Below the pieces are notes generated by a model. That model did not search any database, was not told the DNA's origin, and was given only the letters and a program-made list of their open reading frames with translations. This document shows, in pieces, positions 14,189 to 47,522 of a DNA stretch of 64,000 nt (position 1 is its first letter; every line of letters begins with the position of its first letter). The stretch lies in assembly GCA_963666985.2 (NCBI GenBank), contig CAXXIA010000001.1, forward strand, positions 320,001-384,000. Reading direction: 5' to 3'. Source of the stretch: Spirochaetia bacterium. GTDB lineage: Bacteria; Spirochaetota; Spirochaetia; DSM-2461. Position numbers and translations under genes: made by a program.

Positions 14189-14214
14189 GGGAATATTCCC
14201 GAAAAAGAGCGATT

Positions 14215-14250
14215 CCCGGTACGGAGCGATCATTTCCCGCCCGTACCGGG
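14215..14250 (+). terminator. Intercistronic stem-loop after the binding-protein gene (mRNA stabiliser or attenuator)
   Basis: CCCGGTACGG...CCGTACCGGG, a perfect 10-bp stem. Confidence 0.55.
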
Positions 14251-14279
14251 ATTTCGACCTAAACGGAATGGAGTGAACT

Positions 14280-15800: not shown

Positions 15801-16794
15801 AAGTATTAAGTCTCGGCGCTTATCGCTGAGCCTCCGCACTTTAAAAAGGTACAGCAGCGAATATGGAATCTTCATCGGATTCGTCTTGATTGTAATTTTC
15901 CTTTCGTTCGCCACACCGACTTTCGCGACGTATTGGAACCTTATAACCATACTCAGACAAGTGGCGAGTATCGGCATCGCCACTGTCGCCGTCGGTATGC
16001 TGATAATAATGGGATGCATCGATCTCTCGATCGGTTCCATGTTTGCTCTGTGCGGCATCACCGCGGGACTTATTATCTCAACGGGCAAGGAAGGTTTCGG
16101 ACTGCCGGTTCCTTTGGGATACGCCGTAGGGATTGCAACGGGCGTACTGTTCGGATTCCTTAACGGTATTATCATTGCCAAGGGGAAAATCCCCGCCTTC
16201 ATCGTAACAATGGCTTCCATGTGGATTGCCAGGGGACTGGCCCTTATTTTGGCGCACGGAATGCCCGTCGGGAGTTTTCCCGATGCCTTTACCTATTTGG
16301 GAACGGCTTCAATCGATAAGGCGAACATTCTTCCATGGTCCGTTATTGTTTACCTTCTTGTTGTTATCGTGATGGATTTCGTGATGAAAAAGAGGCCGTT
16401 GGGAAGATATATTTATGCGGTCGGCTCGAATGAGGACGCCGCACTGGCGGCCGGCATCAATACCCAGGCAATCAAAGTAAAGGCCTATCTTCTTGAAGGC
16501 GGATTGCTTGGATTGGCCGCGACGCTTCTTGCTTCACGGCTGAAATCGGCCGCTCCGGCATTAGGCCAGGGATACGAACTTGATGCCATTGCGGGCGCCA
16601 TCGTCGGCGGTGTAAGTTTTTCCGGAGGAATCGGGACCGTCTGGTCCATGGTGCTCGGGGCTATTATTATCGGAGTTATCAACAACGGAATGGACCTTCT
16701 GGGCGTTGAAGCGTTTTACAAGCAGATCGTCAAAGGTCTGATTATTCTTTTCGCCGTTTTGCTGGATCGTCAAAGAGCCGGTCGCGCGGAATAA
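15793..16794 (+). CDS. Sugar ABC transporter permease (RbsC-like)
   Basis: IDLSIGS, GRYIYAVGSN, YELDAIA..GG; hydrophobic. Confidence 0.95.
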   Translation: MDESIKSRRLSLSLRTLKRYSSEYGIFIGFVLIVIFLSFATPTFATYWNLITILRQVASIGIATVAVGMLIIMGCIDLSIGSMFALCGITAGLIISTGKEGFGLPVPLGYAVGIATGVLFGFLNGIIIAKGKIPAFIVTMASMWIARGLALILAHGMPVGSFPDAFTYLGTASIDKANILPWSVIVYLLVVIVMDFVMKKRPLGRYIYAVGSNEDAALAAGINTQAIKVKAYLLEGGLLGLAATLLASRLKSAAPALGQGYELDAIAGAIVGGVSFSGGIGTVWSMVLGAIIIGVINNGMDLLGVEAFYKQIVKGLIILFAVLLDRQRAGRAE

Positions 16795-16856
16795 CCACAA
16801 AAGGTTTTCCGCGGCTTGCATATCGAAGTCCTTTTATTGATTTAATCTCCGTATAC

Positions 16857-16991
16857 GTAGGGCCAAGTCGTATTGGCTCTACATTTTCATTACGGATTCC
16901 TCCGGGCCGCTCCCTTGGCCTGCTTCAGCATCCATGCTTGAAGCTTGCTCCTATTTAGTCGCAAACGGCCTCGGGCTTCGAGTCCCTAAGG
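16857..16991. repeat. tRIP/REP-like palindromic element carrying an inverted copy of the tRNA-Arg T-arm
   Basis: GTAG-type hairpin GTAGGGCCAA-GTCGTA-TTGGCTCTAC (16857-16882). Internal hairpin around GCATCCATGC. GGCTTCGAGTCCCTAAGG resembles tRNA-Arg GGTTCGAGTCCTCTAGGG in the opposite orientation. Confidence 0.5.
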
Positions 16992-17009
16992 TTCCCTATA
17001 AACAGAAAA

Positions 17010-18732
17010 GGGGCTGTCTCATAAGAGGCGGCCCTTTTTCATGTCTGGAAGAATTCCCTTCTGAATTCAAGGGTGGTAGAATTCTTCATGGACACTAAAA
17101 AGAAGGCTACATTCAAAGATTACGAAATCAGCCAACAGATGCTCCTGCCTCCAAGTCTCGATGAACTGCTTCCCGCAAACCATATATCCCGCACAATCAA
17201 CAACTTCATCGACACGATGGATACCAGTGAGCTCTTCAACGCCTATCCGGGAGGCGGTGCCAGCAGCTACCACCCGGTGATGATGCTGAAGGTTCTGGTG
17301 TTGGCCTACTCGAAACAGCTGTATTCCTGTCGTCAAATCGCAGACGCTCTTCGTGAGCAGATATGCTTCATGTGGATCAGTGGTAATAACCGTCCTGATT
17401 TCCACACGATAAACAGATTTCGTAACGGTCCATTGAAGAAGAGCATCGAGAAAATCTTTGCCTCAATGGCCAACAGCCTCATCGAGAGCGGACATGTCCA
17501 GATGGAGAACTACTTTCTCGACGGCACAAAAATCGAATCAGCAGCTAACAAATACACATGGGTATGGGGCCGGGCGACAGACAAGTTCCAGAAGCGCCTG
17601 GCCGGCAATATGGATGAGCTTTTCGAATACATCGACCGCATCAATGAAGAAGAGGATGAGAAGTACGGCGACCATGACCTTCCCCATGTGGATCCTCAAG
17701 GCAGGCCGATGTCGGAGATTCTCGAAGATGCGGTATCCAAGCTCAATGAAGAGCTGCGCAAGGATCGGGAGGAGCGAGAAAAGAAGGAGATTCAACGGAG
17801 ATTGAATACCGCTAGCAAGGACTATCTCCCTCGTGCCAAAAAGTATGAGCAGCAGAAGAGAATCCTCGGCGACCGAAATAGTTACTCGAAAACAGACTAT
17901 GATGCGACTTTCATGCGGATGAAAGAAGACTATATGAAAAATGGTCAGCTCAAGCCCGGGTACAACATCCAAATGGGTACTGAGAACCAGTTCATCCTCG
18001 GATATAGCATCCACCAGAGTCCCGGTGACTCCCTGACATTGCCGCTACATATGGAGAAACTGAAAAAGAATCTGAAACGCTATCCGAAAAGAATCATTGC
18101 TGATTCAGGATATGGTAGTGAAGAGAACTACCAGTGGTGTGAGGATCATGGTGTCGAGAAGTACATCAAGTTCAGCTACTTCCACAGGGAGCGGAAACGG
18201 AAGTTCAAGAAGCAGATTCATATGAAAGAGAACTGGGACTATCGTGCCTCTGATGATACATACCGGTGCCCCAAGGGTCGCCGATTCAAACACGAGGAGA
18301 CCAGAATCTCGAAAACAGGTTCAGGATTTCCGACCACTGAAAAAAGGTATACAGGCCCTGGATGCCAAAGGTGTTCTCTCCGAATCCGGTGCTGCAAATA
18401 CGGAGGCAAAGAGCGCATCCTGACGGTTCGTCCAAACCTGGAACGGCATAAGTCTGAAGTGCGCAAGTTGCTGACTTCAGAGGAAGGACTGAGAATGCGC
18501 TCTCTCAGGCCGATTGAAGTCGAATCTGTATTCGGAGATATCAAGACGAATATGGGATTTCGGAGATTCCGAACCAGGGGATTGAAGATGGTCAGTACTG
18601 AATGGGGACTGTTGAGTATGGCTCATAACATGAGGAAGCTACAGAAACGATAAGGGGATGGGAGGGAACCTCCCGTCTTCGGAGGTCAACCAAATTTTAA
18701 AAGGGGCTGTCTCAAACTAATGAGACAGCCCC
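17010..18732 (+). mobile_element. IS1182-family insertion sequence (about 1.72 kb)
   Basis: IRL GGGGCTGTCTCATAAG (17010-17025) and IRR CTAATGAGACAGCCCC (18717-18732) match 15/16 as inverted repeats. The symmetry extends into flanking GAAAA/TTTTC, so the exact ends are uncertain by a few bp. Confidence 0.88.
17088..18653 (+). CDS. IS1182-family DDE transposase
   Basis: DUF772-like YHPVMMLKV and PDFHTINRFR; DDE motifs LDGTKI, IADSGY, VESVFG; KPGYNIQ. ATG 17088 preferred as start. Confidence 0.95.
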   Translation: MDTKKKATFKDYEISQQMLLPPSLDELLPANHISRTINNFIDTMDTSELFNAYPGGGASSYHPVMMLKVLVLAYSKQLYSCRQIADALREQICFMWISGNNRPDFHTINRFRNGPLKKSIEKIFASMANSLIESGHVQMENYFLDGTKIESAANKYTWVWGRATDKFQKRLAGNMDELFEYIDRINEEEDEKYGDHDLPHVDPQGRPMSEILEDAVSKLNEELRKDREEREKKEIQRRLNTASKDYLPRAKKYEQQKRILGDRNSYSKTDYDATFMRMKEDYMKNGQLKPGYNIQMGTENQFILGYSIHQSPGDSLTLPLHMEKLKKNLKRYPKRIIADSGYGSEENYQWCEDHGVEKYIKFSYFHRERKRKFKKQIHMKENWDYRASDDTYRCPKGRRFKHEETRISKTGSGFPTTEKRYTGPGCQRCSLRIRCCKYGGKERILTVRPNLERHKSEVRKLLTSEEGLRMRSLRPIEVESVFGDIKTNMGFRRFRTRGLKMVSTEWGLLSMAHNMRKLQKR

Positions 18733-28787: not shown

Positions 28788-30212
28788 TTATCCCGTAATA
28801 CGGCCTTTCGATCCGGAATACACATGATGCGCCATTCGGCCGACGCCGTTGAGGCTTGTTATCAGAAGGAGAATCCCGCATCCTTCCGTGGCCAAATCGG
28901 CAAGGGTTTGCATTAAATCCCTCCGGGAACGTTCGGGCAGAATGATTCCCGGCTGTTCAACAACGACGACTTTCGGCCTGAAGAAGCGAAGCATCTGGAA
29001 CGCCACTGAAAATTGGACATGTTCGGTTTGAGTTTCCAGGGGGCGATTGAACGTTTGACGGTCGAGTGAAAGCCTTGCCTGCAAATCCTCTCCGAGAAAG
29101 TTTCTTATTCGGGGATTCACCGTACCCGGACGGCGTAATTTATCGGGAATCGCCAACAGGATATTGTCCAACGGACTTAAGCAGGGAATCGTCAGTTCCC
29201 TGGCGTCTTTCGGAACCAGAAAAATGGAGTTTTTTCGGAGGGACGCCTTCGTATGCAGGTTCGGATAATTGTTTCCAACTTTAATCCTGCCGCTGAAGTT
29301 CTCTTTTCCCCTCATAATGTCCATAACGACATCGTTAATACTGTGATCCGTATCCAGAAGGGCAATGATTTCTCCTTCATGTATCAGAAGGTTCAGAGAT
29401 TCGATGGTTGCCGCCCTTATGTTTTCCCACGACATTACTTCTTTATTCCCCGCTGTCGGTCCGGGTGCCGAATGTTCAATCGTCCCTCCGACAAGGGCTG
29501 TGAGAATTGGTTGAATATCATTGCCGCTTTCCGGTGAATCGACATTCAGTACGGTCCTTCCGGATTGTACGACAAGAAGTCTATCCGATCTGGGAGCAAG
29601 ATCGGCCGCGTCATGTCCCAGCAGAACAACCGAAATCCCATCGTCGTTCAGCTCTCGAAGAATAACTCCAAGCTCCGATTTTTCCTGCTCGTTGCAGAAG
29701 GAAAAGCAATCCTCCATAACGATGATTTCGGCTTCCTGCCACAGCATTCTGCATAGCAGGAGTTTGATTCTCTCGAAAAATCGCAAGTTCCGAGTGTCTT
29801 TTGAAACCAGCGGCGTAATTTCAAGTTTCCGAAGGAGAGGAGCGACGGATTTCGACTTCTTTCGCTCCTTTACCCACTGAAAGGGAGCATCGACTTGATC
29901 GAAAAGCGTGATGTTGTCGATTACGCTTAATGAGGTGATCAGAGACGCGTTGCAGTCGATACAGGAGATGCCCGATTCGCTATTCCGGATCTTTTCTCGA
30001 TACGTTGTCGGTTGTTCTTTGAACCAAATCCTGCCGCCGTCGATAGGCAGTTTCCCGTTGAGCAGGGAAAACAGCGCGGTGCGTTCAAGTTCGGACATCG
30101 TGAGGATTCCTAGTGTTTCTCCTTTAAAAACACGGAGTCTGAAACCGTTTAAAACCGGAGCCTGTTTATACCGGCAGAAGATATGTTCCAGGCGGAGAAG
30201 TTCTTGTTTCAT
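28788..30212 (-). CDS. RbsA/MglA-like tandem-NBD protein with degenerate catalytic motifs (ABC pseudo-ATPase)
   Basis: Colinear with sugar ABC ATPases (LLRLEHI, KGETLGI, GRIWF, LSVIDNI, GISVVLLGHD, DRLLVV, HEGEIIAL, LVPKD, GILLLITS). Walker A, signature and Walker B motifs are replaced in both halves. The frame is intact. Confidence 0.8.
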   Translation of the reverse strand: MKQELLRLEHIFCRYKQAPVLNGFRLRVFKGETLGILTMSELERTALFSLLNGKLPIDGGRIWFKEQPTTYREKIRNSESGISCIDCNASLITSLSVIDNITLFDQVDAPFQWVKERKKSKSVAPLLRKLEITPLVSKDTRNLRFFERIKLLLCRMLWQEAEIIVMEDCFSFCNEQEKSELGVILRELNDDGISVVLLGHDAADLAPRSDRLLVVQSGRTVLNVDSPESGNDIQPILTALVGGTIEHSAPGPTAGNKEVMSWENIRAATIESLNLLIHEGEIIALLDTDHSINDVVMDIMRGKENFSGRIKVGNNYPNLHTKASLRKNSIFLVPKDARELTIPCLSPLDNILLAIPDKLRRPGTVNPRIRNFLGEDLQARLSLDRQTFNRPLETQTEHVQFSVAFQMLRFFRPKVVVVEQPGIILPERSRRDLMQTLADLATEGCGILLLITSLNGVGRMAHHVYSGSKGRITG

Positions 30213-31156
30213 ACCGGTTTTTCCGAGAGAACCGTGCGCGATGTCATCTTCGGAAGCGTAATTTCCAATTCGGTTCCCACATCCGGGGCGCTGGAGATTG
30301 AAACTCCGTAGTCGGAACCGAAATACCTGTTGATGCGGGCGTTGATATTGAAAATAGCGATGCCGGAATGAGTGGAGTCTTCTTCCGTTCCGGCATGAAG
30401 CGGTATCACTTGAGTTTCCTGAAGCCGTGTATTGATGCGGGCCAGTGTTTCGATATCGATGCCCACGCCGTCGTCCACCACCCGTATCAGCAGAGATTTC
30501 TCCGTACAGGCAAGACGAATTTCGACATTCCCCGGCCCGCTTCGAAGCTCAAGGCCGTGATAGACGGCATTTTCCACCGCCGGCTGAATCATCAGTTTCG
30601 GGACGAGACAATCGAGAAGACCGGCGTCTTCCTCTTCGTTGACGATTGTTAACCGGAAACGTTCATCGAATCGGTATTTCAGAATTTTGAAATAGAGTTC
30701 CACATAACGAAGTTCATCGGAAAGCCGCACCAGGTTCCCTTTGCTGCCGACGCCGTATCGGAAAAAAAGGGAGAGAGTTTCGGCCATTTCGGCTATTTCC
30801 TCTTTGCCGTCCCAGAGTGCCTGACCTCGAATGGATTCCAGGGTATTCGAAAGAAAGTGGGGATTAATCTGACTCTGAAGCGCGGCTATTTCGGCTCTTT
30901 TAATCTCCAGTTCCATAAGAGCATCCTGTTCTTCGGCGGCTTTATTCGGCTGCCGGGAAAAGCGATCCCCCGAGGCTCGACGAATGAACGCCGCGGACGT
31001 GCAGACAAATGCGAGGAGAACGAGTGTCGCGGCGATATAACCGGAAACGCCGTGGACCAATCGCCAGCAGCCGATTCCGTACCCGATCGATCCCGTGAGT
31101 ACAATCACCGCAAACCGTGTGATCCATTTTTTTTCTGCGGGCGGGAAACGGATCAC
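30209..31156 (-). CDS. YesM/LytS-type histidine kinase with two short TM helices and no extracellular sensor domain
   Basis: ALQSQINPHFLSNTLE, IQPAVENAVYHG, DDGVG, SGIAIFNI. The two N-terminal hydrophobic segments are joined by a very short loop. Confidence 0.93.
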   Translation of the reverse strand: MIRFPPAEKKWITRFAVIVLTGSIGYGIGCWRLVHGVSGYIAATLVLLAFVCTSAAFIRRASGDRFSRQPNKAAEEQDALMELEIKRAEIAALQSQINPHFLSNTLESIRGQALWDGKEEIAEMAETLSLFFRYGVGSKGNLVRLSDELRYVELYFKILKYRFDERFRLTIVNEEEDAGLLDCLVPKLMIQPAVENAVYHGLELRSGPGNVEIRLACTEKSLLIRVVDDGVGIDIETLARINTRLQETQVIPLHAGTEEDSTHSGIAIFNINARINRYFGSDYGVSISSAPDVGTELEITLPKMTSRTVLSEKPV

Positions 31157-32763
31157 TGATAGATCCTGCGATATTCTCCGGGAGTGATTCCGATATGTTT
31201 TCGGAAAACCTTGAAAAAGTACTTTGCTTCCGGATATCCCACTTCCCTGGCCACTTGGGCCAGGGTGGATCTTTCCGTACGGAGAGCTTCCTTAGCCGCC
31301 TCGATTCTTCTTTGGGTAAGATAGTCGGAAAACAATATGCCGGTTTCCTTCTTAAAGAGGGTTCCAAGATACGTTGGGTTCATTTGGAAACGGGAAGCCA
31401 TGTCTTCGAGATGGATCGGACTGGCATAATGCACATCGATGTATTCCCGGATTTTCCTTACGGGCAAGCTCTCCCTGGCGTGTCTTTCCCTTTCAATTCG
31501 GCGCATTGTTCCGCAAAGGGGTTCTCTTGCCGCATTCAGAATGTCTTGCGGTGAATCGGCGTGGCGGAAGCCGTCATAGAGCCCCTCGAAGATATTTTTT
31601 CGAATCGCGGAAACGGTATTTTCAGGAAGAGCCCGAAGAAAACGGTCACAGAGTTCTTCCGCGGCGGCGTGAAGAAATCTTCCCGGTGTTTCGCCGCTTA
31701 TTTTCCCGATAAAAACATCGAGCCATGTTTCGAAGGCTTCATAATCCAGTGTCTCGGCGAAATTCGCCATGCTTTTTATTTCCGCCGGGTCCAGTCCTGA
31801 ATAGTCCTTATACACCGCGGCTCCTTTACAGAATACCGCCTCGTTTTTCGCCCTCTCGCGGCGGTCTCTGACCGATGCGATCGCCGAGCGGATCGACCGA
31901 AGCCAGGAAAGGGCGCCCGAGCCTTTGGGGCCAATGCCGATGATGATGCCGCCGCCGCCGAGAGGTTCGAGACGAATAAGCAGATTTTCAGCGAATTCCT
32001 TCAGACCGGATGAAACGTTTTCTTCTTCCGAATCCTCATAGCGCAGCAGCATGGCAATCCCTTCCATCGCCGCGCCGCTGTGGAAATCGAGACAGTTCCT
32101 GCCGACAACCCGCTGGGATATGTCGATAAATTTCTCTTCCAAATTCGAGAGAAACGAAAGTTCCTGTTCCTCATTCTTTACCGACAGTCCGCTGACCGCG
32201 AATACGGCTTGAAAAATTCCGCGGTTTGAAACCTCCCGGTCGAATTCTTCACACAGCTGATTGATGCCGGAATCATTCGGATTGTTGCAGGCCTGGAGAA
32301 TCCGCTCCATCACATCTTTTTTATAACGATCCCGACTGACCGCGAGCTGCTGTTCAAGAGCCTTCTCCGGGCTGATTGAGCGGAGCCGACTGCCGATTTT
32401 CTTCAGCGTTCGGTTCAGTTCTTCTTTCTGCAGGGGTTTGAGGATGTAGTCATCAACATCCAGTTTGAGGGCCTTCCGGGCGTAATCAAACTCACGATGT
32501 CCGGAAATAACGACGAATCGTGTTTTGGCACCCGTGGATTTATGCCGGCGGATCAGTTCCAAACCGTCGATACCCGGCATCCGGATGTCGGTAACGACAA
32601 TATCGGGCTTCAGTTTGCTGATTTGATCCAGAGCTTCAAGACCATCCTGGGAATTCCCGATCTCCACCATGTTGAGTTCGGCCCAGTCGACAAGCATGTG
32701 GATTAATTTATACCCTTTCGGCTCATCTTCCGCGATGAAAACCCGAATCGGTTCGGAATTCAT
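31153..32763 (-). CDS. YesN-type response regulator (REC + AraC HTH)
   Basis: IAEDE, VVTDIRMPGIDG, YILKP; C-terminal YLGTLFKKETG...VGY.EAKYF..VF....GITPGEYR. Confidence 0.96.
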   Translation of the reverse strand: MNSEPIRVFIAEDEPKGYKLIHMLVDWAELNMVEIGNSQDGLEALDQISKLKPDIVVTDIRMPGIDGLELIRRHKSTGAKTRFVVISGHREFDYARKALKLDVDDYILKPLQKEELNRTLKKIGSRLRSISPEKALEQQLAVSRDRYKKDVMERILQACNNPNDSGINQLCEEFDREVSNRGIFQAVFAVSGLSVKNEEQELSFLSNLEEKFIDISQRVVGRNCLDFHSGAAMEGIAMLLRYEDSEEENVSSGLKEFAENLLIRLEPLGGGGIIIGIGPKGSGALSWLRSIRSAIASVRDRRERAKNEAVFCKGAAVYKDYSGLDPAEIKSMANFAETLDYEAFETWLDVFIGKISGETPGRFLHAAAEELCDRFLRALPENTVSAIRKNIFEGLYDGFRHADSPQDILNAAREPLCGTMRRIERERHARESLPVRKIREYIDVHYASPIHLEDMASRFQMNPTYLGTLFKKETGILFSDYLTQRRIEAAKEALRTERSTLAQVAREVGYPEAKYFFKVFRKHIGITPGEYRRIYQ

Positions 32764-32856
32764 GATCGGAATATACCATAAGGGAAGGAAAAAGAGACCC
32801 GTTCCGGTCCGGGGAAACGGAGGAAGAAGGCAAGGTTCTCCCTCCGCACCGCAGAT

Positions 32857-33840
32857 TTATACACGAAAGAGTCTTTCTGCGTTCTTGTGGTAGATCATCT
32901 CTTTCTCTTCATCGGTTGCATCAGATTCTTCAATGCAGGAAATACCCGTTTCCATGGAGGAAAGAGGATAATCACAGCCGAAGAGGATATGATCGATGCC
33001 CATGGCCGAGATGGCGCATCGGAGCGTTTCCGGATTATATTCGCCGCTTGTGCTCACATACAGGTTCCGTTTGATGTAGAACGACGGTTCCCGGGTAATC
33101 CGGCCTTTTGAGAGGTAATCGGTTTTGTCCGAGCCTTCGTCGATGCGTCGGAGAAGATACGGCAGAGTCTCTCCGAGGTGGCCGAGAATGAGTTTCGCGC
33201 CCGGGTGCCGTTCGAAGACACCGCCGAAAACAATCCTCAGAGCATGGGTGGTTCCTTCGGCGGCCCAGTTCCACGCCGGGCCGAGCATTTCGGTGTAATC
33301 TCCATAGGCTTCGATTTGATCCGCCGCCGGATGGCCGACATGCAGATACAGAGGAACATCCAATTCTTCCAAAGAGGCCCAAACATCATCAAACTGCATT
33401 TCATCGAGATATTCGAAGTTCGAATGTCCCTGAATCATCACCCCGACGAAGCCGAGTTCTTTTACGCAGCGTTCCAGTTCCATAACGGCCGCGGCCGGAT
33501 CCTGCAGCGGAAGTGTTCCGAAAGCCCGGAAACGGCCGGGATATTCCGAGGCCAGCGAAGCGGTAATATCGTTGTACAGCTTGGCGGCTTCCACCGCTTT
33601 TACGGCATTATCGAAACCTTGCGCGGCCGGCCACATGGCCGAGATAATCTGCATGTCGATTCCGTTTGAATCCATGGAAGGAATACGGTGTTCACCGAAA
33701 GGCTTGTCGCTCAGAGATAATTTCGTTTCCACGAATTTTTTCCCCATAATGTCCGGGAACGCCATCTTCTTTTCCCATTCTTTCATCTGAACCAGCATTT
33801 CTTTTGTTGAAAAATGTTCTTCTATCGCGATTTTTTTCAC
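32857..33840 (-). CDS. Amidohydrolase-2 family protein, gamma-resorcylate/2,3-dihydroxybenzoate decarboxylase-like
   Basis: KIAIEEHF, PLYLH, ILGHLGETLP, FGCDYP. Start at GTG 33840 with SD AGGAG. Confidence 0.85.
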   Translation of the reverse strand: MKKIAIEEHFSTKEMLVQMKEWEKKMAFPDIMGKKFVETKLSLSDKPFGEHRIPSMDSNGIDMQIISAMWPAAQGFDNAVKAVEAAKLYNDITASLASEYPGRFRAFGTLPLQDPAAAVMELERCVKELGFVGVMIQGHSNFEYLDEMQFDDVWASLEELDVPLYLHVGHPAADQIEAYGDYTEMLGPAWNWAAEGTTHALRIVFGGVFERHPGAKLILGHLGETLPYLLRRIDEGSDKTDYLSKGRITREPSFYIKRNLYVSTSGEYNPETLRCAISAMGIDHILFGCDYPLSSMETGISCIEESDATDEEKEMIYHKNAERLFRV

Positions 33841-33883: not shown

Positions 33884-34912
33884 CTATTGTGCGCTGTTCG
33901 CGGAAGGAGCATGACCTTTGACGAGTTTTGCCTTTCGAATAATGCTTTTCGCCTGATGGGAATCCATGGCTATGGCCGTAACCAGCACCAAGCCCTTTAC
34001 CATATATTGAGGATACACATCGAGCTGCATCATCTGCATCCCGTTGGTGATGACCGTAAGAATCAGAACACCGATGACGACGCTGGAGATTTTTCCGCCG
34101 CCGCCGCCCATCCTGATGCCGCCGAGCATGGCGCCGGCGATAAGGGTGAATTCGGTTCCCGGCCCCATCGAAGAGGTGGAAGAGCCCGACCGGGCGATAA
34201 AGACAATCGTTCCCAGGGCGGTAAAGAAACCCGCGATGGTGTAGACGATAATGCGTATTTTTTGAATATTCACGCCTGAGAGTTCCACGGCCTCGGCGTT
34301 GCTGCCCAGTCCGTAGATATAGCGTCCGAAGTAGGTCTTGTTGAGCATGACGGAGCCGAAGGCGACGACAAGAATCATAATGATGATCGCCACCGGAATC
34401 GGTCCGACATACCCTTGCCCGAGAACCCTGAACTGTTCCGGGAAATTGAAGTATGTCTGGGAGGATGAGATCATGAAAGAGGCTCCCATGAACACGTACT
34501 GGGTCGCCAGAGTGATGATGAACGGAAAAACACCCAGCCAAACATAAAGTAGGCCGTTCATGAGCGACATGGCGCAGCCCATAACCAGACCCAAAGGAAT
34601 AATCAGGCCGATCGGCATGCTTGTATGGGTCATCAGATGCCCGAGGACCACACCGATTAAGGACATCTGATATCCGATGGAAAGATCGATTCCTCCCGAA
34701 AGCATAATCAGGGCGACTCCGACACCGACGATGATGAGATAAGAAGCCTGATTGAGAATGTTGCGCAGGTTTATCGCGGTTAAAAAACGGTCCGACTGCA
34801 ATGAAAAAACAACGATCAACACCAGAAGCACGAAGTACATGATGTGGTCTCTGATAAACGTTGTTATATGTTTGCCCGTTTCGTTCGGCTTTTTATCGAC
34901 AAGCGGATTCAT
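33884..34912 (-). CDS. Sugar-type (CUT2) ABC transporter permease
   Basis: GGIDLSIG, FGRYIYGLGSN, EFTLIAGAMLGG. Start at ATG 34912 (SD GGAGGGAG). Confidence 0.94.
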   Translation of the reverse strand: MNPLVDKKPNETGKHITTFIRDHIMYFVLLVLIVVFSLQSDRFLTAINLRNILNQASYLIIVGVGVALIMLSGGIDLSIGYQMSLIGVVLGHLMTHTSMPIGLIIPLGLVMGCAMSLMNGLLYVWLGVFPFIITLATQYVFMGASFMISSSQTYFNFPEQFRVLGQGYVGPIPVAIIIMILVVAFGSVMLNKTYFGRYIYGLGSNAEAVELSGVNIQKIRIIVYTIAGFFTALGTIVFIARSGSSTSSMGPGTEFTLIAGAMLGGIRMGGGGGKISSVVIGVLILTVITNGMQMMQLDVYPQYMVKGLVLVTAIAMDSHQAKSIIRKAKLVKGHAPSANSAQ

Positions 34913-36419
34913 ACTTTTTTTCTCCCTCCAATGCGGCGGCCCCGCCTCCGGAAGCCATGTTGAGAATGTATTCCTGTGTGAAGTAATCTTTCGGAACTTC
35001 ACCGACGAATTCTTTTTCGTGAAGAACGACGATTCTGTCGGACATGCCCAGCAGCTCTTCCATATCCGAGGTGATCATAATGATGCATTTCCCTTCGGCG
35101 CACAGATCATTCATGAGCGCGTACATCTCATGCTTCGCGCCGACATCGATCCCCCTGGTCGGTTCATCGAAAACCAGGATGCTCGTATCCGCCGCAAGGG
35201 TTTTCGCCACCACGACTTTTTGCTGATTCCCTCCGGAGAGATTCAAGACTTTTTGTTTCATGTTCGGTGTTTTTATACTCAGCTGCCGAATATACTCCTT
35301 CGCCAGATCCTGCTCTTTTTTCGTATTGACAAGGAGCATTCGGGCAAGTTTTCTAACGGCCGCGAAAACAATGTTCCAGGAGACACCATTCATGAGAAAG
35401 CATCCGTCACGCTTTCGGTCTTCCGGAACCAAACCGATGCCGTATTTCAGGGCATCGGAAGGGGATGTGATGTCCGCCGGTTTACCGTCGACAAGAATTT
35501 CACCCCATTGACGCCGTTCGGCTCCGTATACGACTCTCATTATTTCGGATCGGCCGGCGCCGACGAGACCGGCCATTCCCAGGATTTCTCCCTTTCTTGC
35601 TTTGAAGGAAACGTTTTTCACTCCGTTCCCGGTCAGATTTTTCAGTTCCAGGGCGACGGGTCCCGGCGGCGTCTTTCTAACAGGGTATGTTTCCGCCAGT
35701 TCACGTCCGACCATATCGCATATCAGTTCACTGCGGCATGTGTCCGCAACATTTTTTGTCACAACGAATTCGCCATCTCTGAATACGGTTACCCTGTCCG
35801 CTATTCGGAATATTTCATCCAGTCGATGGGATATATAAATGATGGTGACACCTTCTTTTTTCAGCTGTGTGACGATGTCCATAAGAATGGCAATTTCCGC
35901 GGCCGTCAGCGGCGCGGTCGGTTCATCCATAATGAGGATTCCGGCGTTTTTTGAGACGGCTTTGGCGATTTCAACAATCTGCCGTTTCGCGCTGCTTAAC
36001 GACCTGACGGGTGTTCTCGGATCAATATCCACTTTGAATCGTTCAAAAATCGCCGAAGCGACCTTGTTCATTTCCCGCTGATTGACGAAATGTCCGTATT
36101 TTTTCCCCAGGCAGATATTTTCGGCCGCCGAGAGAAGGTCTATCAGATTGTATTCCTGGTAAATAGCTTCGATACCGTTGGAGCGGGCCTGCGCCGGCGA
36201 AATACCGGCGTAGGTTTTACCGGAAACGGTAATTGTTCCGCTCTCCGGGCGCACCGCGCCGGTAATCACCTTAATGAAGGTGGACTTCCCGGCTCCGTTT
36301 TCTCCCACAATCGCGTGTATTTCACCTTTGCGGAAATCTACGGAAATTTCATTCAGCGCGACGACGCCCGGATAGATCTTAACTATTCTCTCCAGAGATA
36401 AAATTGTATCAGTTTCCAT
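34893..36419 (-). CDS. Sugar-type ABC transporter ATP-binding protein (intact)
   Basis: GENGAGKST, LIMDEPT, LSGGNQQKV, FDEPTRG. Confidence 0.97.
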   Translation of the reverse strand: METDTILSLERIVKIYPGVVALNEISVDFRKGEIHAIVGENGAGKSTFIKVITGAVRPESGTITVSGKTYAGISPAQARSNGIEAIYQEYNLIDLLSAAENICLGKKYGHFVNQREMNKVASAIFERFKVDIDPRTPVRSLSSAKRQIVEIAKAVSKNAGILIMDEPTAPLTAAEIAILMDIVTQLKKEGVTIIYISHRLDEIFRIADRVTVFRDGEFVVTKNVADTCRSELICDMVGRELAETYPVRKTPPGPVALELKNLTGNGVKNVSFKARKGEILGMAGLVGAGRSEIMRVVYGAERRQWGEILVDGKPADITSPSDALKYGIGLVPEDRKRDGCFLMNGVSWNIVFAAVRKLARMLLVNTKKEQDLAKEYIRQLSIKTPNMKQKVLNLSGGNQQKVVVAKTLAADTSILVFDEPTRGIDVGAKHEMYALMNDLCAEGKCIIMITSDMEELLGMSDRIVVLHEKEFVGEVPKDYFTQEYILNMASGGGAAALEGEKKYESACR

Positions 36420-36452
36420 GTTCGCTATCCCTGTGAAAGAAAGAACTCATAA

Positions 36453-37550
36453 TCAGTTCATCAGGAAGTTGTTTTCAGGATTGTCAATCAGGAAGTCGTA
36501 TCCGATGGCATCCACCGTCCAAATGTCGTCAAGAACCCAGAAAGGGGTTTCCGCTTCACCGAACAGAATACGCTTGGTTACCTGGAAGAGCCCTTCGGCC
36601 ATGAAGACCTTCACCTTCTGACCATGAGTTCCGTAATTGCACGATCCCCGAAGGATGCTTTTGTTTCCTTTGGAACTTTCAATCAGGGGTTTGGAGGTTC
36701 CGTCCGAGTAGCTTCCGGCAAACACGGCATATTTCGACAAATCCAGATTTGGCTGAGATGTAATAAAGTTATTGACGCCGACGGCCGGAGCCTCCTGGAA
36801 CGACAGGAAAAGCTTAATCTGGGGATCCATGGTCATGGCTTCTTCGGCGGCGTTATAGCCCAAATCGATTGAATTATGAGCCTTGGCCGTATAGGTAACC
36901 TGTATCCGCGGATCTTCAGCGGCCGCGGCTATCATGGCATCATAAACCTGCTTGAAGATGAAGGTGTTGTTGAATCCGATAACCGCGGCGTGGATATCTC
37001 CTTCTTTGGCATCCGGGTAGTTTTGATCGATCCAAAGCGACCCCATCTTGGCCACCTGTTTTCCGAGTTCCGAGTATTCTACGGCGGCGCCTCCGGAGAG
37101 CTGATCGTAATAAGCCGGATACTGTCCGTTGAACACAACGGGGATTCCGGCATCCATGGCCTGCAGACAAACGGATTTAACGGCTCCCTGATCAATGGGT
37201 GCGCAGATGATGAGATCGACGCCCATGGAAATGAAGTTTTCCATATGGGAAATCATCAGGGAATTGTCTCCCTCGCAGGCCATGACGCTGACATCAACAC
37301 CCAATTCCTGCAAATTTTTTTGAATGTAATCCACCGTCATTTTCAGGAAGGGATTGGAAAGAGTGTTGACGGCGTAACCGACGGTTACGGTTTCTCCGGC
37401 ATCAAGCTTTTCCTGAACGGTTTTTACGGCCTGATTAGCGGCGGTCCCGTTTTTCGAAGCGGACTCCGATTTCTCTTGGGAACATCCGATAAAGCAGCAC
37501 AGCAGCAGGATCGGAATGAGCCCGAGCAGTACACGTCCATTGCTTTTCAT
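36453..37550 (-). CDS. Sugar-type ABC transporter substrate-binding lipoprotein
   Basis: Lipobox FIGC; TLSNPF, GVDLIICAP, AGIPVV (class I binding fold); divergent C-terminal half. Confidence 0.88.
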   Translation of the reverse strand: MKSNGRVLLGLIPILLLCCFIGCSQEKSESASKNGTAANQAVKTVQEKLDAGETVTVGYAVNTLSNPFLKMTVDYIQKNLQELGVDVSVMACEGDNSLMISHMENFISMGVDLIICAPIDQGAVKSVCLQAMDAGIPVVFNGQYPAYYDQLSGGAAVEYSELGKQVAKMGSLWIDQNYPDAKEGDIHAAVIGFNNTFIFKQVYDAMIAAAAEDPRIQVTYTAKAHNSIDLGYNAAEEAMTMDPQIKLFLSFQEAPAVGVNNFITSQPNLDLSKYAVFAGSYSDGTSKPLIESSKGNKSILRGSCNYGTHGQKVKVFMAEGLFQVTKRILFGEAETPFWVLDDIWTVDAIGYDFLIDNPENNFLMN

Positions 37551-37572
37551 TTTTGTCTCCTTATGCGTTTTG

Positions 37573-38535
37573 TTATATTTTCAGCAAACGCTGAGCGTTT
37601 CGCCGAAATATTTGCTTTTTTTCATCCTCGGGAATGGTCATCTTTTCCACCGATTCGATCGTCAGAGGGATTTCTTTGGGAGTCATTGCGGGAAAATCGG
37701 TCGCGTAGACCATTCTGTCCGGACCGAAAAAGCTGTAGCCCAGTTCCAGGGTGGGTGCCGAATGTCCGTATATGGCGGTATCACCGTAGAACTTGAACAG
37801 GTTTTGATACCAGACTTGTCCCATTTCTCCGCATTTGTTCACCGTGTATGGCGGATCATCGAAATACTGAGCTTTGATTCGTGTATGAAAGGCGGGAACG
37901 AACGCTCCGCAGTGGTGAGTGATGAATTTGATTCCCGGGAACTGTTCGAAAACACCCGAACGGGCAAGAAAAATCATGGCGAGACTGGTATCCAAAGGCC
38001 AATGGAGCATTGTGGCGATATCAAAGGGCTGGGGCAGCGGACCATGGGCAAAAACCGGGTGAATCCAGATAGGAAGATCATAGTCGGCCATCATTTCGTA
38101 GAGGGGAAAGAGACGCTGCGAATCCAGCTGTTCTCCGACGATATTGCTCGATATCTGAATACCTTTCATTCCCAGGTTTTCAACGGCCCGCCGTCCTTCG
38201 GCAAGCGCCGCGCCGATATCCGCCATCGGCAGGGTTGCCGCCGCGGCGATAAAATGGTTTGGAAAGTCCCGAACAAGAGCCGCCATTTCATCATTGGCTA
38301 AGGCCGCAAGATCCGCCGCCGATGACGAATCCGTCATGGATTCCAGATCCGGTCCCATCAATGTGATAACGGATGTATCTCCGGGGGCAACTTCATCCAT
38401 AACTCCGGTACGTTCGATCGGATCGGAGAGAATCGATGCCGGCGGGGAAGGGTGATGGTTGATTTTTCTTTTGTCGAGTTCGCTCAAGTATCGTTTTGGG
38501 AGGACATGAGTAAAAAAGTCGATGTTGCCGGACAT
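37573..38535 (-). CDS. Amidohydrolase-2 family protein (ACMSD-like, IDxFxH variant)
   Basis: IDFFTH, ANDEMA, PIWIHP, ITHHCG, YGDTA, YATDFP. Confidence 0.88.
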   Translation of the reverse strand: MSGNIDFFTHVLPKRYLSELDKRKINHHPSPPASILSDPIERTGVMDEVAPGDTSVITLMGPDLESMTDSSSAADLAALANDEMAALVRDFPNHFIAAAATLPMADIGAALAEGRRAVENLGMKGIQISSNIVGEQLDSQRLFPLYEMMADYDLPIWIHPVFAHGPLPQPFDIATMLHWPLDTSLAMIFLARSGVFEQFPGIKFITHHCGAFVPAFHTRIKAQYFDDPPYTVNKCGEMGQVWYQNLFKFYGDTAIYGHSAPTLELGYSFFGPDRMVYATDFPAMTPKEIPLTIESVEKMTIPEDEKKQIFRRNAQRLLKI

Positions 38536-38570
38536 AGATGTACCTCTGTAATATTTCTGAAAGACGGGTG

Positions 38571-38642
38571 ATTCTATTCGTACGAAATTTTCACTGTCAA
38601 CGCGGATCTGGGATTTGGATACCTCTTATTGGATTTTGATAC
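38571..38642 (-). promoter_or_regulatory. Promoter of the amidohydrolase/ABC operon with an upstream direct repeat (candidate YesN/AraC site)
   Basis: TTGACA(38600-38595)-18 nt-TAGAAT(38576-38571). GTATCAAAATCC (38642-38631) and GTATCCAAATCC (38622-38611) match 11/12 at a 20-bp period. Confidence 0.7.
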
Positions 38643-43318: not shown

Positions 43319-45685
43319 TCAATAAATGTTTTTATGAAGGGTTCGTATATCCGACGCGCTTTTCATTCTCCATAAACCCTCAATGATCCGATCGGAGCCT
43401 TCGAGTGTTATGATGCTTCGATGGAGGATGTCTTTTGACGATGTTCCCAGCATGATTTCGAATTCCCCCGCTTCAACGACACGTTTCCCGTCCACACGCG
43501 TAAATGAAAGCATGTCCGTGGGAATGGAAAAGGCCACTTCCAGGATTTCCTCCGCATCTACCGAAACACGCCGGAAAGCTTTCAATTCCATGAGAGGGCG
43601 AACAAGTGAGGCATAGCAGTCCCGAACATAGATCTGTATCACCTCTTCGCCTGATCGTTCTCCGAGATTTCGGATGCGGCAGCTTATCTCAACCGTTCCG
43701 TCAATCGGGATTACCGCAGATTCAAGCGCGATATCGGCAATTTGAAACTTTGTATACGATAATCCGAAGCCGAAGGGCCTGAGAGAACCGAATTCGGGCT
43801 GTATCGGAGTTCCCGGCGATTTGAATTTATGATTATAAAAGAACGGCATTGCCCCGGCCGATCGGGGAAAGGAAACAGGCAGTTTTCCTCCCGGATTCAC
43901 CTCGCCGAAGAGGACCCTGGCTATTGATGCCGCTCCCCGGCCGCCGGGCAGTCCGGCGTATAGAATGGCTGCCGATTCTTCATCCGCCCGCCCGAGACGG
44001 TAGGGGCGGCCGCTGGAAAGTACGGTAACTACGGGCTTCCCCGTATCCAGAAGAGCATTCAGCAGCTCCTCTTGAGGACCCGGCAGGGATAAAGATGATC
44101 TATCGGAACCTTCTCCAATGGTTCCGGTGAGAAAAAGACCGGAAAGATCGCCCACCATGGCGACGATGACATCGGCCTCCGAAACGATTTGAGCCGCTTC
44201 CGGGATTCTTGAGGTATCCGTGCTGATCCATGATTTCTGGGCACTGCCGTCCAGTCCCACTTCACCCGGAAAGACCGGAGCGCTGTCGGGACGTCCGATG
44301 AGAACGTCGCAGCCGCGTGTGTGAATCAGTTGATCGTCCAGCCGATTGGATAAGATGTCCTTTAATGTTTCCAAACGGTCCTCATCTTCGCTCTCACCGG
44401 CTGAAATTAAGTGAACAGGGAAGGAATAACCGTTGAGCATCGCAAGAGGATCGTCCGCCAGAGGGCCTGTTAAGGCGATTTTAAGACCCGGTTTCAGCGG
44501 TAGAATCCCGTTGTTTTTTAAGAGGACCATCGAGCGGTCGGCGGCTCTGAGAGAAAGATCGATGCTTTTTTCCGATCTCAGATGAACAGCTTCTTCGTTG
44601 ATGAAAGGATTATCCAGAAGGCCGAGTCTCGATTTTTCTTTGAGAATTCGTCTGACGGCTCTATCGATTACCGAGCCGTCGATAAGTCCTTTATCCATTG
44701 CCCGGGCAAGAGCTTTGCCGTATACCGTATCTCCGGGAAGTTCGATGTCGACCCCGGAACTTATGGCTGCCGCCGCCGCTTCTTCAAAGCCGCTTCTGGT
44801 TCTATGATCGGTATGGAGCTGCGCAATCCCTTCATAGTCCCCGACGACAAGGCCGTCGAATCCCCATTCTTTTCTCAAGATATCGTTGAGATAATAAGAT
44901 GATTCGTGCATGGGAATACCGTCGATGTCATGGTACGCGGGCATAACCGAACCGGCTCCCGCCAGTTTCACCGCCATTTCAAAGGGCAAAAGGAAGGTAT
45001 CGTTTAATTCCCTCATCCCGATCCGGACCGGAGCGTGGTTGCGTCCGCCTTCACTGAAGGAATGGCCGGCGAAATGCTTCAGCGTGGCGATGATACGGCG
45101 GTCCGAACCCTGAAGTCCTTTGACATAAGCACATCCCATGCAGCCGACGAGGTAAGAATCTTCACCGAAGCATTCTTCACTGCGTCCCCATCTGGGATCA
45201 CGGATAACGTCAAGAACCGGAGAAAGGGCCTGTCTTGAACCGACGGCCTGGACTTCGTCACCGATTGCGGCGGCGATATCCCGGACCATGTCTTCATCCC
45301 AGAGGGCGCCCATGTTGACCGAGGACGGAAAAATCGTGCCGCCGCGGGCCATCAGCCCGGCAAGGCACTCTTCATGCGGCAGAGCGGGAATGCCGAGCCG
45401 GGTCCGCTCCACAAGAAATTTCTGGATTCGGTTGAGACTTTTAACACCATCAATCGGATTGATGGGAGCGGCTCCCAGCGGTCTGGTAATTTGGCCGATT
45501 CCATTTTTCATGGCTTCGAAAGGATCCTCATTAGAGGATTCGTGCCGCAAGCCCGCGAGATTCTTTATGGAAATACCACCATCGGTATCGGTTATAAGCC
45601 AGATAGAGTGAAGCTGGGCAATTTTTTCGTCCCAAGTCATGCGGGAAACCAGGTTGGCTGCGCGTTGATCGTGTTGAATCATCAA
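43319..45685 (-). CDS. Glycoside hydrolase family 3 (beta-xylosidase/beta-glucosidase) with C-terminal Fn3-like domain
   Basis: RLGIP, RDPRWGR.EE, TLKHF, VMPAY, WGFDGLVVGDY nucleophile, NPGGKLP, FGFGLSYT. Confidence 0.96.
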   Translation of the reverse strand: MMIQHDQRAANLVSRMTWDEKIAQLHSIWLITDTDGGISIKNLAGLRHESSNEDPFEAMKNGIGQITRPLGAAPINPIDGVKSLNRIQKFLVERTRLGIPALPHEECLAGLMARGGTIFPSSVNMGALWDEDMVRDIAAAIGDEVQAVGSRQALSPVLDVIRDPRWGRSEECFGEDSYLVGCMGCAYVKGLQGSDRRIIATLKHFAGHSFSEGGRNHAPVRIGMRELNDTFLLPFEMAVKLAGAGSVMPAYHDIDGIPMHESSYYLNDILRKEWGFDGLVVGDYEGIAQLHTDHRTRSGFEEAAAAAISSGVDIELPGDTVYGKALARAMDKGLIDGSVIDRAVRRILKEKSRLGLLDNPFINEEAVHLRSEKSIDLSLRAADRSMVLLKNNGILPLKPGLKIALTGPLADDPLAMLNGYSFPVHLISAGESEDEDRLETLKDILSNRLDDQLIHTRGCDVLIGRPDSAPVFPGEVGLDGSAQKSWISTDTSRIPEAAQIVSEADVIVAMVGDLSGLFLTGTIGEGSDRSSLSLPGPQEELLNALLDTGKPVVTVLSSGRPYRLGRADEESAAILYAGLPGGRGAASIARVLFGEVNPGGKLPVSFPRSAGAMPFFYNHKFKSPGTPIQPEFGSLRPFGFGLSYTKFQIADIALESAVIPIDGTVEISCRIRNLGERSGEEVIQIYVRDCYASLVRPLMELKAFRRVSVDAEEILEVAFSIPTDMLSFTRVDGKRVVEAGEFEIMLGTSSKDILHRSIITLEGSDRIIEGLWRMKSASDIRTLHKNIY

Positions 45686-45702
45686 TGACTCCTCGGTTTA
45701 CC

Positions 45703-46554
45703 TCATTCCTTGATGGAACCGAGGGCTACGCCGGCGATGATATACCTGGACAACAGGAAGTAAATTACGAATAAGGGGAGTACCGTAAGGGATAGTCCGA
45801 GATAAACGGAACCGTATTCGGTTCTATAAATATCTCCCCTGAGTAAGCTTACCATTATCGGCATGGTATATTTGCTTTTGTCGGTTAGAAGAATGAGCGG
45901 TCGGAATAAATCATTCCAGCTGAAAACAAACGAGAAAATTGCTTGAGTGGCCAAAGCCGGTTTCATGATTGGAATGATGATTCTGTTGAATGTGTATAAT
46001 TCTCCGGCGCCGTCAATACGGGCCGAATTAACAATGTCGAGCGATAAAGTCGCCAAGAGATACTGACGCATGAAGAAGACAACGGCGGGAGATGCTATGG
46101 CGGGAAGTATCAAAGGCCATAAACTGTTTGTCCATCCGATGCGGTACATGAACTGGTAGAATCCGATGGTTGAAACCTGCGCCGGAAGCATTAAAACCGC
46201 CATGATGAACGTAAAGAACGGCTGACGAAGTTTCCAGCTGTACGCTACCAATCCGTAGGCGGTTAAAGAAGAAAAATAGACGGCACAAAAGGTTGCCCCT
46301 GTGGATATTAAAAGAGAATTGATAAAGCCTACGAGCGGATTAAAACTTTTACTTAAAAGTATCTTCATGTTGTTCAGCAGATGAGTTGACGGTAAAAGGG
46401 CAACCGAACTCTGCTGAATCTCATAAGTTCCGCGTGTGGCATTAATGAACATTACCCAGAAAGGGAAAATCGATAGAATTGAGAGGAAAATGCAGACAAT
46501 ATAGACAATCGTTTTTGAAATGTTACGCGAAGTTTTCATGCTTTTCGAGATCAT
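45703..46554 (-). CDS. Carbohydrate (CUT1) ABC transporter permease, MalG-like
   Basis: EAA-like NSARIDGA, WNDLF.PL. Confidence 0.95.
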   Translation of the reverse strand: MISKSMKTSRNISKTIVYIVCIFLSILSIFPFWVMFINATRGTYEIQQSSVALLPSTHLLNNMKILLSKSFNPLVGFINSLLISTGATFCAVYFSSLTAYGLVAYSWKLRQPFFTFIMAVLMLPAQVSTIGFYQFMYRIGWTNSLWPLILPAIASPAVVFFMRQYLLATLSLDIVNSARIDGAGELYTFNRIIIPIMKPALATQAIFSFVFSWNDLFRPLILLTDKSKYTMPIMVSLLRGDIYRTEYGSVYLGLSLTVLPLFVIYFLLSRYIIAGVALGSIKE

Positions 46555-47522
46555 ACAGCCATCCCCTTTGCTGCGGCTTTTTGCATTTTTATCCGCGTTT
46601 TCTCATACTTTCTTTCCCGTATCGCTTCTTTATCACGCATGATGAAGAAAAGGATGCCTGAAAGAAGGGCAATAATAAGGAACATAATAAGACTGGCCGC
46701 CGACGCTCTGTTGTACAGATAACTGCCGCTGAAGGCTTGATTGAATATAAAAACACTCGTGGTTAACGTCTCTTGATTCGGTCCGCCCCAAAGATACAGT
46801 TTCGGAATATCGAACATCTGCAGTCCGCCGATTAAGCTGGTGACCAATGTGTAAAGTAAGATGGTTTTCAGCCTGGGCAGGGTGATGCGGAAAAAGATTT
46901 GTGAAGGGCTTGCGCCATCGATTTCAGCGGCTTCAAAGAGCGACGGATTAATTCCCAAAACTCCCGCGATGAGAATAATCATGGTATTCCCATACCACAT
47001 CCAGAATTGGATAAACGCAACCACTCCTTTTGAGGTCCAAGCTTGCTGATGAAAATTGGCGGGAGAATCATATATACCCAAAGCCATAAAAACATCGTTA
47101 ATAGGCCCTTTCGGATAGCCGAAAAGAGAGTTGAAAAGAATGGCGATCGTGGCCGCCGTAATGATATTGGGCATATAGATCAAGACTTTAAAAGCCCCTT
47201 GTCCTTTAACCTTGAGTCGGCTGTTTGTAAACCAAGCGGCTAAAAGAAGGGCCAGCAATATTTGAGGGATGAAATTCATAATCCAGATAATAAATGTTGT
47301 TGATAATGATTTTCGGAACGTCGCGTTATTAAGAATGATCTGGAAGTTTTCAAACGGTTTTTCCAGGATGTGAAACTCGGTCTTCGTAAGACCTCTCAGA
47401 TCCGTAAATCCGATAATCGTTGTAAAAATTACAGGATAAAGAGTAAAAATTAAAAAAGCCAATACGAAAGGTATAGAAAAGAAATATCCATATTTCGCGT
47501 AACTGACACCCTTGCGCCTCAT
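46551..47522 (-). CDS. Carbohydrate (CUT1) ABC transporter permease, MalF-like
   Basis: FEAAEIDGAS..QIFFRITLP, GGP. Confidence 0.95.
   Translation of the reverse strand: MRRKGVSYAKYGYFFSIPFVLAFLIFTLYPVIFTTIIGFTDLRGLTKTEFHILEKPFENFQIILNNATFRKSLSTTFIIWIMNFIPQILLALLLAAWFTNSRLKVKGQGAFKVLIYMPNIITAATIAILFNSLFGYPKGPINDVFMALGIYDSPANFHQQAWTSKGVVAFIQFWMWYGNTMIILIAGVLGINPSLFEAAEIDGASPSQIFFRITLPRLKTILLYTLVTSLIGGLQMFDIPKLYLWGGPNQETLTTSVFIFNQAFSGSYLYNRASAASLIMFLIIALLSGILFFIMRDKEAIRERKYEKTRIKMQKAAAKGMAV

Follow-up and report, generated by a model that had tools for sequence, protein, structure and literature searches.

A conserved regulatory triad of a YesN-type regulator, a short sensor-less kinase and a motif-less RbsA paralogue beside a CUT2 importer in a Spirochaetia bacterium

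Introduction

Several systems are known in which an ATP-binding cassette (ABC) transporter or one of its parts takes part in transcriptional control, and they are the frame for the locus analysed here, a triad of genes for a YesN-type response regulator, a short histidine kinase and a motif-less paralogue of the importer ATPase RbsA (hereafter the pseudo-ATPase), which lies beside a CUT2 importer operon in a Spirochaetia bacterium. The DNA analysed, called the window throughout, is a stretch of 64,000 nucleotides (assembly GCA_963666985.2, contig CAXXIA010000001.1, positions 320,001 to 384,000 of the forward strand); a contig from sequencing runs covers the entire stretch with zero differences and may be the source of this DNA. 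Among the known cases, MalK is an ABC ATPase that regulates the transcription of its own operon; it is active and acts on the transcription factor MalT via an extra C-terminal domain, with no kinase involved. BceS is a HisKA kinase that acts with an OmpR-type regulator, and BceB is an exporter-type permease. As far as the available part of PMC10314905 describes them, the BceAB-BceRS modules of Bacillota resemble the triad in their two-helix kinase, which has no sensing domain and depends on an ABC transporter, and in the pairing of kinase, regulator and ABC parts at the operon level, but their ATPase, BceA, is active, and contact between kinase and permease is made within the membrane. The triad shares with this type a two-helix kinase without an extracellular domain encoded near an ABC transporter, but not its protein families: its kinase belongs to PF06580, its regulator is of the REC-AraC type, its transporter is a CUT2 importer with an RbsC-like permease (PF02653), and it has an additional gene for a motif-less ATPase.

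In the PstSCAB-PhoU-PhoR/PhoB system of Escherichia coli, the conformation of the importer sets the state of the kinase via a cytoplasmic adaptor, PhoR has no periplasmic sensor (like the window kinase), and transport-dead PstB mutants still set the state of PhoR, which is counted here as a precedent for the reading favoured below (PMC5775613, the portion available). According to the same portion, PhoU binds the working ATPase and is not itself a paralogue of ABC ATPases, whereas the candidate adaptor here is a dead ATPase copy (PMC5775613). CuaDSR and XylFII-LytS-YesN, as presented in the accessible part of PMC10384115, share with the triad the AraC type of the regulator and, on the reading proposed below, the supply of the input by a third gene of the regulatory operon, with a neighbouring sugar ABC operon as the output; their third part is, however, a solute-binding protein on a large extracellular kinase domain (CuaS has 627 amino acids), while the third gene of the triad encodes a paralogue of the nucleotide-binding domains (NBDs), that is, a cytoplasmic NBD pair, and its kinase has no ectodomain. 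The core of the YesM/YesN type is present (PF06580, the phospho-acceptor His, HATPase_c and a REC-AraC regulator), but not the large extracellular sensor domain with HAMP, which makes such kinases about 600 amino acids long as against 315 here. Finally, RbsA, AraG, XylG and MglA, the CUT2 ATPases of about 500 amino acids, match the pseudo-ATPase in full-length tandem-NBD homology and fold, but normal members keep the one composite active site that the pseudo-ATPase has lost. The triad can be described as transporter-coupled two-component signalling in a variant form, which departs from the BceAB, PstSCAB and CuaDSR or XylFII-LytS systems, from each in a tested feature. It is real and conserved, and apparently undescribed in print: the initial annotation, made from the sequence alone, knew of no characterised system of this design, and the full-text literature searched, mostly outside subscription journals, yielded no account of any pairing between a kinase and a dead ABC ATPase. 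The part of a review of phosphorelay regulation that is available names accessory proteins, none of them a dead ABC ATPase (PMC12189002).

The triad and the loss of catalytic motifs

The analysis confirmed that the regulator, the short kinase and the motif-less RbsA paralogue form a conserved family and not a decaying duplicate. The window has the family's order of regulator, kinase and pseudo-ATPase, its diagnostic residues and a CUT2 importer nearby. The three genes (Table 1) had been described as joined by 4-bp stop/start overlaps, and their open reading frames (ORFs), coordinates and overlaps (GTGA at 31153-31156 between regulator and kinase, ATGA at 30209-30212 between kinase and pseudo-ATPase) are as claimed. 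The third protein had been read as a tandem-NBD layout without the catalytic motifs in a full-length frame with no stops, and this too holds: the frame is intact, and the alignment with the intact ATPase encoded 4.7 kb upstream covers the protein from end to end (458 aligned columns, 19% identity, E 1e-16), with Walker A GENGAGKST replaced by TMSELERTA, Walker B LIMDEPTA by IVMEDCFS and the second Walker B by VVVEQPG. The loss of the LSGGNQQ signature also stands, although its counterpart shifts slightly, from about LETQTEHVQ in the initial annotation to QTEHVQF. With the switch His and the catalytic Glu gone as well, Walker A Lys, Walker B Glu and switch His of NBD1 and the LSGG signature of NBD2 are all absent. 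Profile scores are correspondingly low, at 28.5 bits (weak) for Pfam ABC_tran, against 172.5 bits for the intact ATPase, and 84 bits for NCBIfam RbsA, the cut-off of which is 745. Nevertheless, an AlphaFold2 model built from 28 sequences gives a complete tandem-NBD fold (pLDDT 85.4, pTM 0.83), closest in the PDB to the tandem ATPase DppD (TM-score 0.77), and the protein carries 14 of the 42 family-diagnostic residues, as compared with 0-6 in 79 active ATPases.

Where the initial annotation had considered that homologues might have intact Walker motifs, they proved to be motif-less as well. Among 70 full-length members, 32 retain Walker A Lys and 5 the switch His, each signature Gly is left in a single one, and all five tested catalytic residues occur together in none (0/70), against 80/80 active controls; the Walker B columns of this alignment are ambiguous by one position. 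Judged from these residues, ATP hydrolysis is likely to have been lost in the family, while leftover nucleotide binding is possible in some members and unlikely for the pseudo-ATPase of the window.

The short kinase

The window kinase had been described as having two transmembrane helices with hardly any loop and no Cache, PAS or HAMP domain, with which hydropathy (helices at residues 16-34, weak at 1.5, and 40-58, at 2.2, separated by five residues) and Pfam (PF06580 and HATPase_c, no other domain) agree. His100 stands in QINPHF, and the N and G boxes and ATP-lid motifs are intact. These features are typical of the family: Cache, PAS and HAMP had no match in 56/56 kinases (E<=0.01), and a two-helix hairpin is found in 59 of 66, with one helix in 2 and none in 5, the loop of the two-helix kinases being 0-16 residues long, as in intramembrane-sensing kinases. 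A single-sequence search with the kinase gave 403 matches; the 120 matches listed are 244-374 amino acids long, mostly with two helices, and the named organisms among them are Bacillota. A second kinase-ATPase pair in the same genome was discarded as a candidate, its ATPase being intact and its kinase (G000:C2:2947899-2949675) a long YesM-type protein split into two overlapping frames, likely by a frameshift. Scanning genome contigs with a single kinase gave 11 loci, and the two top matches, when inspected, were long, unrelated kinases.

Linkage and distribution of the family

Loci were collected by the kinase profile alone, from metagenomes (80 loci) and genomes; 123 kinase loci were gathered, 18 were excluded (cut N-terminus or less than 400 nt downstream), and 75 with short and 30 with long kinases were kept. 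A pseudo-ATPase is present at 70 of the 75 short-kinase loci (the window counted; directly downstream in 68) and at 0/30 loci with a long, sensor-bearing kinase, a call that is partly circular at those loci on which the pseudo-ATPase profile was built but not at the genome loci added later. Counted by clusters at 60% identity, the linkage is the same (39/40 versus 0/18). As to the five exceptions, three are short-flanked and their sisters hold the pseudo-ATPase a few kb off, and in the other two (L146 and L201) the regulator is immediately preceded by an extra ATPase that is half-degenerate. In the reverse direction, a search starting from the pseudo-ATPase brought 9 new loci, of which one was an active ATPase and another was located at the end of a contig; in the remaining 7/7, the short kinase and the regulator stand directly upstream. 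An intact CUT2 ATPase with its permease accompanies 41/41 short-kinase loci, as against 5/18 long-kinase loci, when at least 7.5 kb of flank is available on each side. Synteny with a short kinase and a CUT2 importer, for which the initial annotation had asked in the homologues, is near-invariant.

The arrangement is usually compact: at 46 of 60 loci, no more than 30 nt separate the kinase stop from the pseudo-ATPase start. At two loci (L144:10167-11654 and L049:793-2355) it lies on the opposite strand, convergent to the kinase, so that translational coupling is not obligatory. At two others (L194:2993-4456 and L195:14159-15610) it lies a few kb upstream of the regulator and is followed by a gene of about 680-750 amino acids with two predicted helices.

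Because five candidates were scored per genome, counts in genomes are floors: the family occurs in at least 9/37 genomes of the taxonomic family of the window and at least 2/400 genomes of its phylum, and in the class of a Ruminiclostridium metagenome-assembled genome, at least 18/400 have a kinase match, at least 15 of them short. The pairing of kinase and pseudo-ATPase extends over many anaerobic bacteria. Muricomes intestini carries the family and Faecalicatena contorta has a kinase homologue, so that the system is open to testing in named organisms. A profile search against representatives at 50% identity found at least 150 pseudo-ATPase clusters, each at >=388 bits; the 150 best matches are 373-556 amino acids long, and among the 150 representatives listed the full Walker A pattern occurs in 5, an SGG/LSGG match in 5 and DEP[TS] in 1. 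Database names of the members are those of ordinary sugar ABC ATP-binding proteins; this misnaming conceals a signalling family that comprises at least 150 divergent clusters. It came to light only via kinase searches: a single-sequence search with the window pseudo-ATPase gave 13 weak matches and no close relative, 40 related genomes also being searched, and a word-based profile search gave only 20 matches and missed most of the family.

Selection, ancestry and conservation pattern

The initial annotation had called for a dN/dS (non-synonymous to synonymous rate) comparison. In the family the ratio is far below 1, at 0.05-0.18 in the 9 pairs with dS <0.5 (of 42 pairs) and up to 0.27 in the other computable pairs; for the gene of the window no close orthologue pair was found, sequencing runs included, and none of the pairs involves it. 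All 70 members fall on one branch of a FastTree tree (support 0.926), and with a site-heterogeneous model in IQ-TREE, 17 of 18 sampled members including that of the window group together (SH-aLRT 99). Local duplication, as represented by forcing the window pseudo-ATPase into the clade of the local ATPase, was rejected (p-AU 3.6e-6 and 7.3e-5; 22 rows); the IQ-TREE results are from quick trees. Long-branch attraction could lie behind the grouping, yet the window protein shares the diagnostic residues counted above, and one ancient origin of the pseudo-ATPases is shown by these sequence comparisons. The sister of the family is a near-intact extra ATPase in a regulatory operon beside a 485-amino-acid kinase (L147:12684-14210), an apparent intermediate; at L146:5800-7470, L201:5727-7226 and L139:7832-9304, also apparent intermediates, the extra ATPase in the regulatory operon keeps Walker A only.

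Relative conservation peaks at the N-terminus (1.46), in the Q-loop and following segments (1.31 and 1.20) and in the Walker B/D-loop segments (1.18 and 1.28), and is lowest at Walker A (0.94 and 0.72) and the second signature (0.79). New with respect to active ATPases are the N-terminal residues E4 (94% of the family) and R7 (81%). In ABC importer ATPases, the segment or groove after the Q-loop contacts the coupling helix of the permease.

Dedicated permeases, soluble kinases and co-variation

At six loci (three pairs), an extra divergent permease stands directly behind the pseudo-ATPase, far from the permease of the importer at the same locus (tree distance 2.5-3.6); at L189 and L200 it is the last gene of the regulatory operon and is transcribed away from the importer. 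In a clade of five loci, the kinase has no hydrophobic helix and the pseudo-ATPase is retained, which indicates that the link in that clade is cytoplasmic and does not pass through membrane helices; the importer adjoins in both loci that have enough flank. Tree distances over 47 loci, which as kin are not independent, correlate at 0.74 for pseudo-ATPase and kinase, 0.61 for pseudo-ATPase and permease and 0.46 for kinase and permease; the last value falls to 0.02 once the pseudo-ATPase is partialled out, and pseudo-ATPase and permease remain at 0.45 after removal of the kinase. These correlations lend weak support to an adaptor.

Promoters and candidate regulator sites

Upstream of importer genes in the homologous loci, a tandem repeat AAAnAnnnCCCnCTnT with a period of 21 is found about 20 nt before the -10 box. 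Such a layout would be expected where an AraC-type activator binds. The matrix of this motif comes from 19 training loci chosen after the repeat was spotted by eye; its information is 276, against about 161 in base shuffles, and it scores 11.9-22.3 in 12/20 held-out loci (2 of the motif-bearing ones being near copies of training loci) versus <=8.0 in gene-internal controls. The candidate promoter of the window importer operon (Table 1) is preceded by a different element, a 12-nt direct repeat with a period of 20 (38642-38631 and 38622-38611), a possible regulator site that scores poorly (3.8) with the family matrix, and there is a palindrome in the -35/-10 spacer. A TG-extended -10-like box lies about 8 nt 5′ of the regulator ATG (32763-32790, minus strand) and was not picked up by the promoter scan; the triad may have a leaderless transcript of its own from this box. 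Terminator-like hairpins are no more numerous in the region than expected by chance, which bounds the call made at 32798..32821.

Proposed role of the pseudo-ATPase

In the reading favoured here, to which a probability of roughly 0.55 is given, the dead ATPase sits on the permease and informs the kinase of the permease's substrate state. The motif-less RbsA copy would be the missing input subunit of the sensor-less kinase; taking the place of the active ATPase on the RbsC-type permease, it would signal to the kinase that the permease is substrate-loaded. The YesN regulator would then likely be phosphorylated by the kinase, and the neighbouring importer operon would be switched on. Linkage to sensor-less kinases and CUT2 importers, the shift in conservation, the extra permeases, the helix-less kinases, tree co-variation and the tandem repeat at importer promoters of homologues point indirectly to such a role; all physical contacts, the direction in which control runs, and the target and substrate assigned to this genome are inferred. 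The initial annotation had put forward the same role, which is partly supported: motif loss, synteny and the family dN/dS are all favourable, while the retention of Walker A Lys in 32/70 members and the absence of the family motif upstream of the window importer operon qualify it. A more tentative form holds that an importer has been rebuilt as a receptor, the dead ATPase and a permease (that of the importer or a dedicated one) making up a non-transporting complex that would turn substrate binding outside into kinase activity inside. The loci could then be arranged as an evolutionary series from a near-intact ATPase (L147) through half-degenerate ones (L146, L201 and L139) to dead ones, and on to dedicated permeases and helix-less kinases.

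Several points weigh against the adaptor. A dedicated permease is found at 6/70 loci only, so that elsewhere the pseudo-ATPase would have to compete with the active ATPase for the permease of the importer; the conserved segments after the Q-loop are also structural core and hence no proof of docking; and an NBD pair unable to close on ATP has no explained way to report substrate binding. The window copy itself is a long branch, with <=27% identity to its nearest homologues among the matches listed. In addition, the family motif is not found in the window (3.8, 6.4 and 1.8 upstream of the three candidate starts, 3.8 being the value for the importer operon), which makes the target of the regulator in this window uncertain, and the near-consensus promoter of that operon fits an activator poorly.

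Other explanations have to be weighed against the same evidence. The pseudo-ATPase might be a cytoplasmic regulatory subunit of the kinase that does not dock on a permease but senses an imported metabolite or nucleotide, or binds the active ATPase in a manner similar to PhoU, the link between PstB and PhoR. Its tightest co-variation is indeed with the kinase (0.74), E4 and R7 are new and specific to the family, Walker A Lys persists in part of the members, a clade with soluble kinases exists and most loci have no dedicated permease; this is nonetheless judged unlikely, since three separate locus pairs keep a divergent permease with the pseudo-ATPase in the regulatory operon and since the correlation of pseudo-ATPase and permease outlasts removal of the kinase. 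Doubtful to a greater degree is that the kinase senses the active importer by direct contact of its membrane helices, the pseudo-ATPase being a co-inherited modulator (a brake, a chaperone or a competitor of the active ATPase). BceS touches BceB through transmembrane helices (PMC10314905, the part available), and the hairpin with its short loop in 59/66 kinases and the invariable presence of an intact importer at well-flanked loci agree with such contact, but the five loci with helix-less kinases retain the pseudo-ATPase, its start mostly follows the kinase stop within 30 nt, none is seen beside importers under long kinases, and two close paralogous importers in the genome have no copy. That the pseudo-ATPase is a functionless decaying duplicate of the local ATPase is refuted for the family and has next to no probability here: very low identity to everything, the long branch and the want of a close single-sequence match would suit it, but the number of divergent clusters, the low dN/dS of the unsaturated pairs, the rejected grouping with the local ATPase clade and the intact frame with its complete predicted fold do not.

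If the adaptor reading is true, it explains the input of a large group of sensor-less YesM-type kinases, provides a natural case of an ABC subunit with a dead ATP site that serves signalling, and offers a way to test directly whether sensing coupled to a transporter depends on the ATP cycle or on conformation only, a question already posed for PstSCAB and BceAB. Should the complex be a receptor, it would represent a new class among bacterial receptors, one whose evolutionary steps can still be seen.

The importer operon and other features of the window

Table 1. Features of the regulatory triad and the importer operon (positions in the window)
Feature	Position	Strand	Basis and remarks
Candidate promoter of the importer operon	38571..38642	-	-35/-10 at 38600-38571, 11/12 consensus, 18-nt spacer
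Amidohydrolase_2 enzyme, first gene of the importer operon	37573..38535	-	Pfam
Divergent Peripla_BP_4 substrate-binding protein	36453..37550	-	Pfam
Intact RbsA-type tandem ATPase, all catalytic motifs	34893..36419	-	Pfam, NCBIfam, alignment
RbsC-type CUT2 permease (PF02653), sole permease of the operon	33884..34912	-	Start inferred; ORF open to 35002
Amidohydrolase_2 enzyme	32857..33840	-	Start inferred from ribosome-binding site; ORF open to 33912
Terminator-like hairpin separating importer operon and triad	32798..32821	-	Consensus match only
YesN-type response regulator, 536 amino acids	31153..32763	-	Pfam: REC and AraC HTH
PF06580 (YesM/LytS-type) histidine kinase without sensor domain, 315 amino acids, GTG start	30209..31156	-	Pfam
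Pseudo-ATPase, RbsA/CUT2 paralogue, full-length tandem NBD, 474 amino acids	28788..30212	-	Alignment, Pfam, model, tree

The two amidohydrolases of the importer operon resemble gamma-resorcylate and 5-carboxyvanillate decarboxylases, the former being the nearest solved relative of the enzyme at 32857..33840 (E 3e-61). With such neighbours, the substrate here may be an aromatic acid rather than a sugar, perhaps, on this enzyme similarity, a hydroxybenzoate-like acid; decarboxylase-like flanking enzymes were found at none of the other family loci searched. The genome has a single pseudo-ATPase and two paralogous importers (65% ATPase identity) without one adjacent, so that transport probably does not require a local pseudo-ATPase. 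In another study (runs X3/X4), a contig carries a 97-98% identical copy of window 35150-38600 only, in which the ATPase is truncated and carries a small insertion and the binding protein has a 234-nt deletion; the triad is not in the matched part, and the contig seems to come from a related strain in which a copy of the importer operon has decayed.

Elsewhere in the window, a soluble kinase of 699 amino acids, in which a LacI-type sugar-binding domain is fused to a HisKA_3 core, is encoded with a NarL-type regulator (49129-51875, minus strand) immediately upstream of a putative operon of sugar ABC and glycosidase genes (43319-49006). A catabolic cluster at 1486-18653 (plus strand) contains a transketolase, a thiamine pyrophosphate (TPP) enzyme, oxidoreductases and a GntR regulator, and is closed by a second CUT2 importer (13169-16794, plus strand), after which comes a DDE transposase (17073-18653). 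An [FeFe]-hydrogenase large subunit and a NuoF-like partner are encoded at 55601-58590 (minus strand).

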